From Gammaproteobacteria bacterium (GTDB lineage: Bacteria > Pseudomonadota > Gammaproteobacteria > GCA-001735895), in assembly GCA_024763505.1 (NCBI GenBank), contig JANTFI010000001.1, forward strand, positions 8,602-72,601: a stretch of DNA of 64,000 nt. The letters are read 5' to 3'. Of this stretch, positions 39,782 through 43,232 are shown one piece after another. A program made the position numbers and the translations under genes. The notes beneath the pieces were generated by a model that saw only the letters and a program-made list of their open reading frames with translations, ran no database searches and had not been told where the DNA came from. Every line of letters begins with the position of its first letter. Positions within the stretch are counted from its first letter, which is position 1.

Positions 39782-41797
39782 CTAATTAAACAGTTTAAAC
39801 AATTGTCCGCTTTGTTCCTTGATATACCCGGCGGTTTCATTGTGCCCTGATTCGAGCGCGGTTTCATAAGCATTTCTTTCTTTCTTGTTACGGGTATGTA
39901 AGTCGGCTTTGTCATCAATCAATAACTTGACGGTTTGCAGATCGCCTTGCAAGGCCGCCACAATCAACGCAGTATCTCCCGCCTTGTTTTTATGGTTGAT
40001 CTCGATATCGGATTTCAGCAGTTCCCGGAGGATGCGTTGATTGCCGGAAAGGGTCGCCAGCATCAGCAAACTGTTACCCTGGTTGGTCTGGCTGTTGAGA
40101 TCCGCATTTTTCTGCATCAACATGTGAAAAACCTGGTCATGACCCCGATATGCAGCACGGGCAATGGCGCTGTAACCATCACTGTCTTTCAGATTGATAT
40201 CGACCTTGTCGCTTTCCAGCAATGCCCGGGTAGCCTTTTCGAGTCCGAGGTCCGCGCTGTACCACAAGGCGCTGCGATGATGCTCGAATGTAAAATGCAG
40301 TAACGGGTCTCGCTTGATCAGGCTGACGCTGACCGCCTGCATTTGCTGTTGCAATGACAGCAACAGAGACTGGTGGATGGATGCAGGGCTCAGCTTTTGA
40401 TTGGCCAGCAACGCTGCGATTTCCGGATGCTGATTGATGATGGCAAGCGCCAGTGGGCTGTTTCCCTTTTTCGAGACGATGGCGGTATTTGCATGCTGAG
40501 TCAGAAGATATTGCACGATGTCGCGTTGCCCCTGAGCTGCGGCGATCGACAGGGCGGTTTCGTTTTTGGTATTGACTGCATCGATATCGATGTTGTTGGC
40601 AATCAGCAGTTTGACGATTCTCAGTCGCCCCTTGCCAGCGGCGCGGTGTAAAGCCGTATTGCCAGAGTCATCGTTACTATGGATGTCGACGCCCTGTTTG
40701 ATCTGGGCCGTAACGATGCTGTATTCACCCAGCAGGCTGGCGATATGGATCAGTGGCCAACTTTTGTACAGGTTGTCGTTGCGCGCAATGCTTTGACTGA
40801 AGCTGTCTATATCGGTACGGGCGTATTGCTGTTTTGCCGAGGGTAACGCAATGCCCTGTTGGCGGAAAACTGCAAGACTCTTTTTCAACTTTAAAGTGCT
40901 GGCAATCTGTGGGGCGCTCTGTCCCTTTTTATTCTTGATGGCCGGGTTCGCACTTTTCGACAGTAATAATTTCACCATGCCCCCATCGTCATGGCGGGTT
41001 GCGATCATCAGTGCCGTATTGCCCAATCCATCGGTTGCATTGATATTGATTTTTCTGTTCAGTAATGACTCGACAATGAAGTGATATCCATAGCGGGTAG
41101 CAAGATGAATCGGATAATCGCGGTTATCATCGACGGTATCGAGTTGCCGGGTACGAGGCAATAACAGACGCGCGATTTTTTCATGTCGTGAGAGCAGGGC
41201 AGCCATGAAAGGGGTTCGGCCCTTGTCATCGATGAAGTTGAAATTCACACCTTGCTCGATCCATGCCTTGATCTGGTCAAGATTATTGATGAGGATTGCG
41301 CTGAAAACGTTGTCGTGATTGACGAGTTGTGCAGAGGCTGTTTGCTTGCGTTTCATCAGTAAAGACAGTCTGCGCTTTGCCAGCCGGTTTCCTTGATCGG
41401 CCGCAGCAGAGTACCACTTGATTACTGAATCCATCTGCCTTCGGGTTGCGCTTTGCTTTTCCAGCAGAGAAGCCAGCGCATACTGTGCGTCGGCCAGGCC
41501 GGATTCAGCGGCTTTCCGGTACAGCGCGAGCGCCTTGTCAGTATCTTTTCTAACGCCTTGCCCGGAACGATACAGCCCCGCCATGCGATATTGTGCCTGT
41601 GGGTCATTCAGCTCGAGATAGGGTTGCAACTGTTGTACGGCTTTTTGGTAATCTCGCAGTCGGATCGACCGATCGACCTCTTTCATACTGCCCTGCTCAC
41701 GGGCGCTGACCGGAGTTAAAACGATCACCATCACGAGGATGGCGCAATGCAGGAAAACTGTCGGGCGTGAAAATAAAAACTGCCTGCTTAGCATCAT
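39782..41797 (-). CDS. Secreted Sel1-repeat plus ankyrin-repeat protein.
   Basis: 671 aa. Signal peptide, two Sel1-like repeats (AQYRMAGLYRSGQGVRKD..., AQYALASLL...), then at least 10 ankyrin repeats (GNTALMIATRHDDGGMVKLLL...). Confidence 0.75.
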   Translation of the reverse strand: MMLSRQFLFSRPTVFLHCAILVMVIVLTPVSAREQGSMKEVDRSIRLRDYQKAVQQLQPYLELNDPQAQYRMAGLYRSGQGVRKDTDKALALYRKAAESGLADAQYALASLLEKQSATRRQMDSVIKWYSAAADQGNRLAKRRLSLLMKRKQTASAQLVNHDNVFSAILINNLDQIKAWIEQGVNFNFIDDKGRTPFMAALLSRHEKIARLLLPRTRQLDTVDDNRDYPIHLATRYGYHFIVESLLNRKININATDGLGNTALMIATRHDDGGMVKLLLSKSANPAIKNKKGQSAPQIASTLKLKKSLAVFRQQGIALPSAKQQYARTDIDSFSQSIARNDNLYKSWPLIHIASLLGEYSIVTAQIKQGVDIHSNDDSGNTALHRAAGKGRLRIVKLLIANNIDIDAVNTKNETALSIAAAQGQRDIVQYLLTQHANTAIVSKKGNSPLALAIINQHPEIAALLANQKLSPASIHQSLLLSLQQQMQAVSVSLIKRDPLLHFTFEHHRSALWYSADLGLEKATRALLESDKVDINLKDSDGYSAIARAAYRGHDQVFHMLMQKNADLNSQTNQGNSLLMLATLSGNQRILRELLKSDIEINHKNKAGDTALIVAALQGDLQTVKLLIDDKADLHTRNKKERNAYETALESGHNETAGYIKEQSGQLFKLFN

Positions 41798-43113
41798 GCG
41801 GTCCCGTATTTGGTTTCTACCGTGATGCCAATCTGCTTGAGAAAGCCGGTCGGCAGAATACCGCCTGCATTGATTATGACGGCATCATTGTCGATGATGA
41901 CCTTCTCGCCATCATAGTCCAGTGTTATTGCATCTTCGGTAATCGATTTAACCTGCGACGACAGATAAAGCCGGATCTTACCCTGTTGTGCATAGGTATC
42001 GATACGATCACGGTTTTTCGCTTTTGCGCGCGAAAAACTGGCACTGCGATAAGAGAGTGATACTTCGCTGCCTTGCACATCGGCTATCGCCAGCGCCGCT
42101 TCAAGTGCACTGTCGCCGCCGCCGACGATCATGACTTTCTGGTTGGTATATTGCTCCGGGTCAATCAAACGATACACGACCTTGGGCAAGTCTTCGCCCG
42201 GCACGCCGAGCTTGCGCGGTGTGCCGCGGCGGCCAATTGTGAGCAGAACGGTGTCGCTGGCGTATTCGCCTTTATTGGTGGTAACCCGAAAGCCGGATTC
42301 GGTCTGTTCGATATTGGCTACGATTTCCTGGTAGTGGATGCTGATCCCTGTTTTCGCCTCGACCTGTTGCCAGAATTCCAGCAATTTCTCTTTACTGGTT
42401 TCCTTGAAGTTCATGGTGCCGATCATCGGTAGTTCGACCGGCTGGGTCATGACGATCTTACCGCGCGGGTACTGGAATACCGTCCCGCCGAGAGAATCCT
42501 GATCCAGTGTCAAGTATTTGAGGCTCTTGTTCTGAGCGTACAGTGTTGCCGCGATGCCGGCGGGGCCGGCACCGACAATAATCACTTGATAAGGATTGGC
42601 CGATTTCTTCGATGCTGTGGCCGAAATCGACTTCATGGCTGATTTGCCCTGCTCGATGGCATTGCGTATCAATCCCATGCCTCCGAGTTCGCCGGCAATG
42701 TAGATACCTTTGACGTTGGTTTCGAAGCGGTCATCAACCTGGGGGATATCGACACCGCGTTGCTCGGTGCCAAATACCAGCGTGATCGCATCTTCGGGGC
42801 AGACTTTCTTGCATGCGCCGTGGCCGATACAGTTGGCAGGTTCGAGCAGTTCCGCCTTGCCATGAATGATGCCAAGCACATGATGGCCTAGCTGCTGCGG
42901 GCAGACATACACACAGGATTTGCAGCCGATGCACTTGTTCTTGTCGATCATCGGGTGCAGTGAGGCCGGTTCGGTCAAACCGTTTTCCCGGGCTTGCTCG
43001 AGTACATGATGACTTTTCTTCTGCTGTGCTCTGAGTTTAAGAATATAAATCAGAAGAATTCCTGCGATCAGTAGTGCAGGCAGATAGTCGATGCCAGATT
43101 CCATGAGTCCCAA
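41794..43113 (-). CDS. Membrane-anchored ferredoxin-domain FAD/NAD(P)-dependent oxidoreductase (thioredoxin-reductase-like fold).
   Basis: 439 aa. N-terminal TM helix, two 4Fe-4S motifs (CIGCKSCVYVCP, CIGHGACKKVCP), then a Rossmann GAGPAG flavoprotein domain. Stop overlaps the downstream gene start (ATGA). Confidence 0.65.
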   Translation of the reverse strand: MGLMESGIDYLPALLIAGILLIYILKLRAQQKKSHHVLEQARENGLTEPASLHPMIDKNKCIGCKSCVYVCPQQLGHHVLGIIHGKAELLEPANCIGHGACKKVCPEDAITLVFGTEQRGVDIPQVDDRFETNVKGIYIAGELGGMGLIRNAIEQGKSAMKSISATASKKSANPYQVIIVGAGPAGIAATLYAQNKSLKYLTLDQDSLGGTVFQYPRGKIVMTQPVELPMIGTMNFKETSKEKLLEFWQQVEAKTGISIHYQEIVANIEQTESGFRVTTNKGEYASDTVLLTIGRRGTPRKLGVPGEDLPKVVYRLIDPEQYTNQKVMIVGGGDSALEAALAIADVQGSEVSLSYRSASFSRAKAKNRDRIDTYAQQGKIRLYLSSQVKSITEDAITLDYDGEKVIIDNDAVIINAGGILPTGFLKQIGITVETKYGTA

Positions 43114-43232
43114 ATCCGTAAAATGTGAATTAATCAGATTTTGATTGATTGAGTTAAATTGGTATTATATTCCCAAATTAGATTAGAATACATTCTGTTC
43201 ATCACATATGTAAATCGTTTCACTTTATCTTC

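Follow-up and report, generated by a model that had tools for sequence, protein, structure and literature searches.

An Fe–S Flavoprotein and an Exported Sel1/Ankyrin Protein as Predicted Partners of PCC3-Type Porin–Cytochrome Clusters

The 64,000-nucleotide stretch of a gammaproteobacterial contig analyzed here (JANTFI010000001.1, assembly GCA_024763505.1; hereinafter the window) harbors two minus-strand open reading frames (ORFs), 41794..43113 and 39782..41797, diverging from a plus-strand operon which starts at 43233 and encodes an inner-membrane protein (IMP) and multihaem cytochromes (MHC). The two ORFs code for a membrane-anchored iron–sulfur (Fe–S) flavoprotein and a Sel1/ankyrin protein with an export signal; by its sequence features, the divergent operon is a PCC3 cluster, and the pair very probably belongs to the same module. 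So far, PCC3 has been described as a set of four genes with an IMP thought to be quinone-active (He et al. 2017, PMC5566968; Gallionellaceae pangenome, PMC9900912). The best explanation of the findings is that the pair represents PCC3 components five and six: the flavoprotein would serve as an NAD(P)H entry module driving outward electron flow, the ankyrin protein would assist in the periplasm, and the two operons would share their control. The probability of this explanation, taken as a whole, is estimated at roughly 55%.

Layout of the Locus and Its PCC3 Operon

The features of the locus are as follows.

39782..41797, minus strand: Sel1 + ankyrin solenoid protein with an export signal, 671 aa; translationally coupled to the flavoprotein gene (ATGA)
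41794..43104, minus strand: membrane-anchored Fe–S flavoprotein, 436 aa (439 aa if translation began from the alternative TTG at 43113)
43105..43232, no strand: putative shared divergent control region, 128 bp, 28% GC, promoter-like sites back to back
43160..43175, no strand: palindrome copy, candidate operator, 2 mismatches to TGGGAA-N4-TTCCCA
43233..44027, plus strand: PCC3-type IMP, 264 aa, five predicted transmembrane (TM) helices
44027..45592, plus strand: predicted periplasmic multihaem cytochrome c (MHC1), 21 CXXCH motifs; start and preceding IMP stop overlap (TAATG)
45771..48035, plus strand: second, repetitive multihaem cytochrome c (MHC2), 27 CXXCH and one CX3CH; fits the “extracellular” MHC of PCC3
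48105..50234, plus strand: outer-membrane protein (OMP), porin candidate, 709 aa, with a signal peptide and N-terminal SPOR/TPR

The flavoprotein and ankyrin genes meet at the junction GCATGATGCT, where the TGA stop and the ATG start share four nucleotides (ATGA; one nucleotide if the second ATG is used), and no terminator is found between them. A first-pass annotation of this DNA had pointed to the four-nucleotide overlap, which is indeed present, and to an AT-rich spacer of 119 bp in front of the cytochrome operon. The AT-richness of the spacer holds (28% GC vs. ca. 52% for the window) but its length needs correction: since the orthologues of the flavoprotein in databases are 433–436 aa long, its translation likely starts from the ATG at 43104 (MESGIDY, with GGGA 5 nt upstream; a product of 436 aa) and not from the TTG at 43113, hence the spacer comprises 128 bp (43105..43232).

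The published criteria for the IMP of PCC3 and PCC4 include a length of ca. 300 aa, five TM helices, two WX3HX13H motifs (in helices 3 and 5), and an SGXXG motif in helix 4 (PMC5566968). The IMP from the window possesses five predicted TM helices, both WX3HX13H motifs (W76FRFH80-x13-H94 and W239HILH243-x13-H257), and the SGXXG motif between them (S117GLIG121), and it is accompanied by two many-haem cytochromes (21 + 27 CXXCH) matching the cytochrome c7/c3 families of Pfam; among the NCBIfam profiles, the cytochromes show only a weak match to HmcA. The two W–H–H motifs correspond to two predicted bis-His haem b sites whose four His are retained in 63–65 of the 65 homologues and invariant in an alignment of 20 sequences. 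By the positive-inside rule, the basic loop 57–74 and a helical insert of ca. 110 aa between TM4 and TM5 (122–235) are placed in the cytoplasm; therefore, H80 and H243 would be situated near the cytoplasmic face of the membrane, and H94 and H257 near its periplasmic face. The geometry predicted for the IMP is thus that of a transmembrane di-haem relay. No match to the PF01794 profile and no fold match to a solved NOX/MsrQ-type domain were obtained for this protein.

The OMP is syntenic in 47 of the 80 loci compared below and qualifies as a porin candidate, its barrel being a prediction. Its counterpart in S. lithotrophicus ES-1 (hereinafter ES-1), the porin Slit_0867, is annotated as a “Sporulation domain-containing protein”. 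The presence of SPOR (peptidoglycan-binding) and TPR segments ahead of the presumed barrel suggests that the PCC3 conduit may be tethered to the cell wall.

Linkage of the Pair to PCC3 across Genomes

The flavoprotein has numerous relatives: none of the 8000 candidates scored had an E-value above 1e-20, and identity was at least 69% in the best 120. With one genome counted per species, at least 585 species from the Gamma-, Beta-, and Alphaproteobacteria encode such a relative; methanotrophs, rhizobia, Woeseiaceae, and chemosynthetic symbionts are among them. For the comparison of gene neighborhoods, ORFs were called in the best 80 loci by similarity and searched with the six proteins of the window; the ORF calling was crude, and the sample includes near-duplicates (L004–L009). 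In each of the 29 loci with at least 5 kb of sequence on both sides, the IMP and the multihaem cytochromes were encoded within 10 kb of the flavoprotein, and the OMP was found in 25 of them. The reverse test employed loci retrieved from metagenome contigs with a diverse alignment of the IMP: of the 40 loci in which the sequence reaches at least 3 kb beyond the IMP on its upstream side, counting by eye revealed the flavoprotein in about 39, the exception (L164) being a sequence which ends early downstream.

The order of the genes within the module differs from locus to locus, as do the genes flanking it. The arrangement is divergent in most of the loci and convergent in others, e.g., L016, L023, L024, L051, and L052; in L156, the flavoprotein/ankyrin pair lies after the OMP gene in convergent orientation. 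In L032, L084, L125, and L128, all six genes form a single co-directional operon (flavoprotein, ankyrin protein, IMP, MHC1, MHC2, OMP). Such a variety of arrangements points to selection for co-inheritance and not to one frozen gene order. Overall, the earlier suggestion that the divergent pair is tied to the cytochrome operon is upheld by co-occurrence in both directions, in the three proteobacterial classes, and in several gene orders.

The components of the module are conserved to a different extent. The median identity to the proteins of the window (69 loci) amounts to 57.6% for the flavoprotein, 44.5% for MHC1, 39.3% for the IMP, 29.1% for MHC2, 28.5% for the OMP, and 28.3% for the ankyrin protein. 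Conservation declines toward the cell exterior, the cytoplasmic flavoprotein being the most constrained part of the module and the ankyrin protein evolving at the pace of the outer components.

The Flavoprotein: Domains, Chemistry, and Topology

In the Pfam search, the flavoprotein matched Pyr_redox_3 (1.8e-44) together with several Fer4 families above their cut-offs. It is built of a TM helix (residues ~8–24), a ferredoxin-like domain (53–112) with seven Cys and His95, a displaced “GD-type” FAD segment (~125–150), the FAD-binding GxGxxG motif at residue 178, and the NAD(P)H-binding GGGDSA motif at 328; the latter two motifs, along with Y352-R353-S354...R359, are invariant in the alignment. 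The first Fe–S motif is complete (C58xxC61xxC64xxxC68P), and the second is of the form CX2HX2CX3CP (C92xxH95xxC98xxxC102P), with His95 invariant in 14 sequences. Hence, the second cluster would be either a His-ligated [4Fe-4S] or a [3Fe-4S] one, and a canonical eight-Cys 2×[4Fe-4S] ferredoxin domain was rejected, the position of the eighth ligand being taken by His95. Thus, of the membrane-anchored 2×[4Fe-4S] flavoprotein proposed initially, the anchor and the Fe–S and flavin domains stand, whereas the cluster type does not.

A profile search against the sequences of solved structures placed the protein nearest to YpdA/Bdr (E = 8.5e-37), followed by thioredoxin reductase (TrxR) and TrxR-type ferredoxin-NADP reductases (hereinafter TrxR-type FNRs). 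All seven Cys reside inside the ferredoxin domain, as does the sole CxxC (C58–C61), and the FAD loop reads GAGPAG, with Ala in the position of the YpdA Cys14. The lack of Cys outside the Fe–S domain, along with this Ala, indicates an electron-transfer enzyme and excludes disulfide-reductase chemistry. Two candidate identities were rejected: bacillithiol disulfide reductase YpdA/Bdr (TIGR04018; 175.4 bits vs. the cut-off of 339.9, with the Cys of the GGGPCG loop absent) and thioredoxin reductase (TIGR01292; 93.6 bits vs. the cut-off of 343, with no CxxC in the NADPH domain). The TrxR-type ferredoxin-NADP+ reductases (3lzw, 3ab1, 6gas) are related in fold and sequence, the motifs are invariant, and the Fe–S partner is fused to the reductase, although the match to YpdA is closer. 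With disulfide reduction excluded, the natural activity of the protein would be electron transfer between NAD(P)H and Fe–S clusters.

The part of the flavoprotein compared with YpdA (residues 170–436) terminates where YpdA residue 272 lies, and the C-terminal FAD segment of YpdA (residues 278–310) aligns, weakly by itself, to residues 122–153 of the flavoprotein, i.e., before GxGxxG. This displacement suggests that the flavoprotein is circularly permuted relative to YpdA/TrxR at the very site where the Fe–S domain is attached.

The N-terminus of the flavoprotein is acidic and is followed by the single TM helix and then by the basic stretch KLRAQQKK; no twin-arginine motif was found in it. According to the positive-inside rule and in view of the missing twin-arginine motif, an N-out/C-in orientation is expected, so the cofactor domains would face the cytoplasm, in line with the topology which the first-pass annotation had anticipated.

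The Sel1/Ankyrin Protein

The second protein of the pair gave strong Pfam matches to ankyrin families (Ank_2, 249 bits, 3.5e-75, in nine stretches; Ank, 162 bits) and to Sel1 (44.1 bits vs. the cut-off of 30.7, E = 2.4e-11). A signal peptide and at least ten ankyrin repeats had been noted in it beforehand. Both observations hold: a Sec-type N-terminal signal is present (cleavage near VSA/RE at residue ~32), and a hidden Markov model built from its own repeats recovers eight strong and two to three weak ankyrin repeats. The Sel1 region (~66–136) is followed by two ankyrin blocks (~165–300 and ~345–660). The signal is shared by 71 of the 74 orthologues, which show a basic n-region, a hydrophobic core, and a cleavage site with small residues. 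The orthologues are 640–700 aa long, and their conservation is confined to the framework residues of the repeats. The exact sequence of the protein from the window is absent from the protein collection searched.

The orthogroup is sharply bounded, its scores running from 877 down to 395 bits and then dropping to 177 bits for generic ankyrins, and it was found only inside the PCC3 module. Of the 18 orthologues located on contigs of 10 kb or more, 16 could be paired with a flavoprotein or IMP match by the equal size of the longest contig (a comparison of tables); the one locus inspected directly contains the same six-gene module. The ankyrin gene directly follows that of the flavoprotein in 47 of the 63 loci with enough sequence (~75%). 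It is absent from the loci of Burkholderiales, Gallionellaceae, and the Woeseiaceae-like ones, which would explain its absence from the work centered on Gallionellaceae. The refuting case named at the outset, an ankyrin gene scattered with no relation to the cytochrome genes, was not encountered, the gene being specific to the module, though optional. Nor does the initial hint at host association find support: the pairing is common in metagenome-assembled genomes (MAGs) labelled as sediment, soil, and freshwater lineages, and it occurs in symbionts as well. A Legionella-type Dot/Icm ankyrin effector was rejected as an identity for this protein (best match AnkG, 127.7 bits vs. the cut-off of 500), in view of the Sec signal and the conserved PCC3 context.

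Several modules lacking the ankyrin gene contain other solenoid proteins. A small TM protein with a TPR_CcmH_CycH-like region is encoded between the IMP and the flavoprotein in 7 of the 20 loci without the ankyrin gene vs. 3 of the 57 loci with it. Representative cases are given below.

L028:9050-9517, L042:8951-9466, L055:9291-9797, and L070:9199-9612: small TM + CcmH/CycH-like TPR proteins beside the IMP, in loci without the ankyrin gene
L042:11331-12953 and L046:11293-12954: a TPR protein of 540–553 aa in the slot of the ankyrin gene
L071:5768-9966: a complete ccmFGHI set inside the PCC3 module

The replacement of the ankyrin protein by CcmI/CycH-like TPR proteins suggests that it could be a periplasmic solenoid helper in the maturation or positioning of cytochromes c. 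Its designation as a chaperone or scaffold is tentative.

The Shared Spacer and Its Putative Regulator

The spacer contains a promoter-like site for each direction: TTGATT-16-TATTAT on the plus strand (43141..43168) and TTTACA-18-TATTCT on the minus strand (43214..43185). The scan of the region 39500..44100 returned no more promoter-like sites than shuffled sequence; two of the three sites fall inside the 128-bp spacer. The search for a shared motif, advised by the first-pass annotation, was productive: the alignment of spacers from related loci revealed the palindrome TGGGAA-N4-TTCCCA, which occurs with at most one mismatch in 35 of the 69 divergent spacers vs. 36 of the 1380 shuffled controls (2.6%). 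The loci harboring it include L004 (L004:9783-10000), L010, L011, L014, and L093–L105. The copy from the window, TGGTATTATATTCCCA (43160..43175), deviates from the consensus in two positions; it overlaps the −10 element of the plus-strand promoter-like site and lies just downstream of the minus-strand one, a position which would suit a repressor of both operons. Both operons are probably controlled from the shared AT-rich spacer by a dimeric regulator acting at the palindrome, whose 5-N4-5 geometry presumably resembles that of the CRP/FNR-type sites. A second copy with two mismatches is located inside the IMP gene (43849..43864).

Proposed Route of Electrons and Its Alternatives

In the route that we propose, the flavoprotein would be held on the cytoplasmic face of the inner membrane by its N-terminal helix and would oxidize NAD(P)H at the YpdA/TrxR-like FAD site, i.e., with no redox-active cysteine involved. 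Single electrons would then proceed via the two Fe–S clusters to that haem b of the IMP which is nearer to the cytoplasm, and the two stacked haems of the latter would carry them across the membrane to the 21-haem periplasmic cytochrome. From there, electrons would pass to the outer-membrane protein and the 27-haem cytochrome and, eventually, to an extracellular acceptor. The module would thus be a split two-component entry of the NOX/ferric-reductase kind joined to a porin–cytochrome wire, with the ankyrin protein exported to the periplasm as a solenoid chaperone or scaffold for maturing or positioning the giant cytochromes.

The confidence in the individual parts of this scheme differs. A redox partnership of the flavoprotein with the IMP is likely; for NAD(P)H as the donor together with outward flow, the odds are about even. 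Electron export from NAD(P)H (−320 mV) is favored by the redox potential and by the membrane potential alike, and inward flow to NAD(P)+ from donors in the Fe(II) range is strongly uphill. For this reason, the outward direction is preferred here.

Several observations weigh against the proposed route. The link between the flavoprotein and the IMP is derived from comparative genomics, and no fusion of the two was found among the best 150 of the 3340 representatives (at 50% identity) of the IMP family; the longer homologues among them carry SPOR or TPR N-termini (P0426, P0400) or nothing recognizable. The percentages reported above are not an unbiased census, since the loci were the best by similarity and include near-duplicates. 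The AlphaFold2 model of the flavoprotein built from the 14-sequence alignment is poor (pLDDT 64, below 30 in the Fe–S domain), so the Foldseek search with it, which gave low TM-scores, merely repeats the family-level assignment (YpdA/TrxR/FNR). The ankyrin protein is missing from ~25% of the modules and shows no TPR_CcmH_CycH or CcmI-type match in Pfam. The palindrome is limited to a part of Gammaproteobacteria, shows no enrichment over the whole window, and is absent from most of the non-divergent arrangements; among the loci with separated or co-directional operons, it convincingly precedes each operon only in L023, hence the motif is lineage-restricted. The second PCC3 cluster of ES-1 (Slit_1446-1449) has no adjacent flavoprotein (ES-1 proteome, PMC12016527), so the two clusters may share one flavoprotein, or the mode of operation of cluster 2 may be different. 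Finally, the published PCC3 hypothesis assumes inward flow to quinone during Fe(II) oxidation.

The most serious alternative, though an unlikely one, is the same module operating in reverse, with electrons from an extracellular donor (Fe(II), a mineral, or a cathode) passing through PCC3, the IMP, and the flavoprotein to NAD(P)+ or a ferredoxin-like acceptor. It would offer autotrophs a direct route to reducing power bypassing quinone-based reverse electron transport. The TrxR-type FNRs, to which homology was found in our searches, are generally known to be reversible, and many hosts are lithoautotrophs judging by their taxon labels (Gallionellaceae, Thiodiazotropha, Sedimenticola), whereas others belong to lineages labelled as heterotrophs or methanotrophs (Bradyrhizobium, Steroidobacteraceae, Methylococcaceae). 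Such a flow would have to overcome the membrane potential as well as an uphill redox step (donors at ~0 to +0.2 V, acceptor at −0.32 V), and no component of the module is seen to supply the energy needed. Although PCC3 has been proposed to participate in electron uptake and Fe(II) oxidation (PMC5566968), both PCC3 clusters of ES-1 are down-regulated on Fe(II), and the authors concluded that they play no role in Fe(II) oxidation under their conditions (PMC8788666).

It is also improbable, somewhat more so than reversal, that the pair consists of maturation factors only, neither of them being a part of the working conduit. Here, the flavoprotein would act via the IMP to reduce the CXXCH thiols or the haem iron of the apocytochromes during the ~48 haem attachments, and the ankyrin protein would hold the apocytochromes. 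The Ccm genes and CcmI/CycH-like TPR proteins embedded in the module or substituting for its parts are in favor of this idea, as are the TPR–IMP fusions and the fast evolution of the ankyrin protein, expected of a chaperone or scaffold. Still, the IMP gene opens the cytochrome operon and is kept throughout, as a structural subunit would be; no component of the module is better conserved than the flavoprotein; and the thiol reduction in the Ccm pathway normally proceeds via CcdA/DsbD–CcmG, not via haem b proteins. Lastly, an independent neighboring unit, e.g., a YpdA-type reductase of low-molecular-weight-thiol disulfides with an ankyrin host effector or adaptor, can be dismissed as highly improbable: YpdA/Bdr is the best family match of the flavoprotein and the Legionella Ank effectors are the best, sub-threshold NCBIfam matches of the ankyrin protein, but both scores are below the curated cut-offs (175 vs. 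339.9 bits for YpdA and 128 vs. 500 for AnkG), the flavoprotein has neither the YpdA Cys14 nor a redox CxxC, the ankyrin protein has a Sec signal and no type IV secretion context, the hosts are mostly MAGs labelled as free-living lineages, and the synteny already contradicts it, with two-way co-occurrence over more than 100 loci in several gene orders.

Comparison with Known Systems

The proposed NAD(P)H-fed module resembles PCC3 as delineated by He et al. (2017) in the IMP motifs, the 21-haem periplasmic MHC, the repetitive 27-haem MHC, and the outer-membrane protein, all present in the operon from the window, as well as in the SPOR annotation common to the OMP and the ES-1 porin. It differs in that the published cluster comprises four genes, whereas here the flavoprotein is linked to it almost universally and the ankyrin protein in ~75% of the loci.

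In the NOX/FRE systems and the bacterial two-component MsrQ–Fre system, electrons enter from an NAD(P)H flavoenzyme in the cytoplasm and cross the membrane through a protein in which two helices carry two bis-His haems b. Judging from the genes, the flavoprotein and the IMP would follow the same transmembrane logic. A resemblance of the HX13H motifs to the ferric-reductase domain was remarked upon by He et al. (PMC5566968). Unlike in these systems, the putative dehydrogenase of the module has the TrxR/YpdA fold and not the FNR-like fold of NOX, it possesses a membrane anchor of its own and an interposed Fe–S ferredoxin domain, and the predicted acceptor is a multihaem wire instead of O2, Fe(III), or MsrP.

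The Tmc and Hmc complexes of sulfate reducers unite a periplasmic multihaem cytochrome c, a membrane cytochrome b, and a cytoplasmic Fe–S protein, and quinone is not necessarily involved in their operation. The PCC3 module would link periplasm and cytoplasm by the same kinds of components. However, the cytoplasmic subunit of Tmc/Hmc is HdrD-like (with CCG domains) and lacks sites for flavin and NAD(P)H, these complexes have no outer-membrane conduit, and no sequence relation between them and the IMP was detected.

With YpdA/Bdr and the TrxR-type FNRs (PDB 7a7b, 7a76, 3lzw, 3ab1; IruO 5twb), the flavoprotein shares the two-dinucleotide-binding fold and the FAD/NADPH motifs. It differs from them in lacking the active-site Cys or CxxC and in having the TM anchor and the ferredoxin domain.

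Ankyrin proteins associated with catalases are represented by AnkB of P. aeruginosa and Cj1386 of C. jejuni. Together with CcmI/CycH, they provide a parallel as periplasmic alpha-solenoid proteins handling haem proteins, with CcmH/CycH-like TPR proteins taking equivalent positions in the modules devoid of the ankyrin gene. In contrast to them, Sel1 and ankyrin repeats are combined in the protein from the window, which at 671 aa is far larger and gives no Pfam match of the CcmI type; it is a candidate, and no more than that, for binding haem or apocytochromes.

Significance of the Expanded Module

The cytochrome cluster itself is already known. Its flavoprotein and solenoid partners, the permuted YpdA-like Fe–S architecture, and the implied coupling to NAD(P)H appear to be undescribed in the searchable literature: a flavoprotein, ferredoxin, or ankyrin protein is not mentioned with PCC3 in PMC5566968, PMC9900912, or bioRxiv 2025.02.27.639646, and literature searches on PCC3 and such partners yielded no description of the flavoprotein or the ankyrin protein. 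The finding is, in its entirety, one of comparative genomics.

PCC3 is among the most widespread predicted clusters for extracellular electron transfer, and transcript data question its designation as an iron oxidase. A flavoprotein of the NAD(P)H type found nearly always with PCC3 offers a concrete, testable wiring at the inner membrane. The entry of electrons from NAD(P)H would change the expected direction of the flow and its energetics, bypassing quinone. A bolder formulation, which we regard as rather doubtful, is that PCC3 is a trans-envelope “NADPH oxidase/ferric reductase” and not primarily an Fe(II)-oxidizing, quinone-coupled conduit; in it, the permuted YpdA-like Fe–S flavoprotein would feed the di-haem b protein and a wire of ~48 haems, with the periplasmic Sel1/ankyrin protein as a dedicated assembly factor. 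If true, this reading would mean a quinone-independent, membrane-potential-assisted dumping of reductant onto minerals, humics, or O2 (as extracellular superoxide).

Some consequences are of practical value. Being the most conserved part of the module, the flavoprotein is a better marker gene for PCC3. Periplasmic ankyrin arrays with a defined housekeeping context are rare in bacteria, and the ankyrin protein would be one of them. The conserved palindrome offers a starting point in the search for the regulator and for the inducing signal.

Neighboring Genes

The ankyrin gene is faced, across a 9-bp gap, by a convergent plus-strand gene (38720..39772) for a 350-aa S-adenosylmethionine-dependent methyltransferase (Methyltransf_31). 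It possesses paired cysteines near the N-terminus (DACCTD) and a C-terminal CGCC, and its adjacency to the module is not conserved elsewhere; we take it to resemble arsenite methyltransferase of the ArsM type. Farther away, on the minus strand (33727..36955), the gene of an ECF-type sigma-70 factor (187 aa) overlaps that of a Ser/Thr-kinase-like protein (920 aa) which has a TM segment along with an extended TPR region; the two could be a signalling pair upstream of the PCC3 locus.

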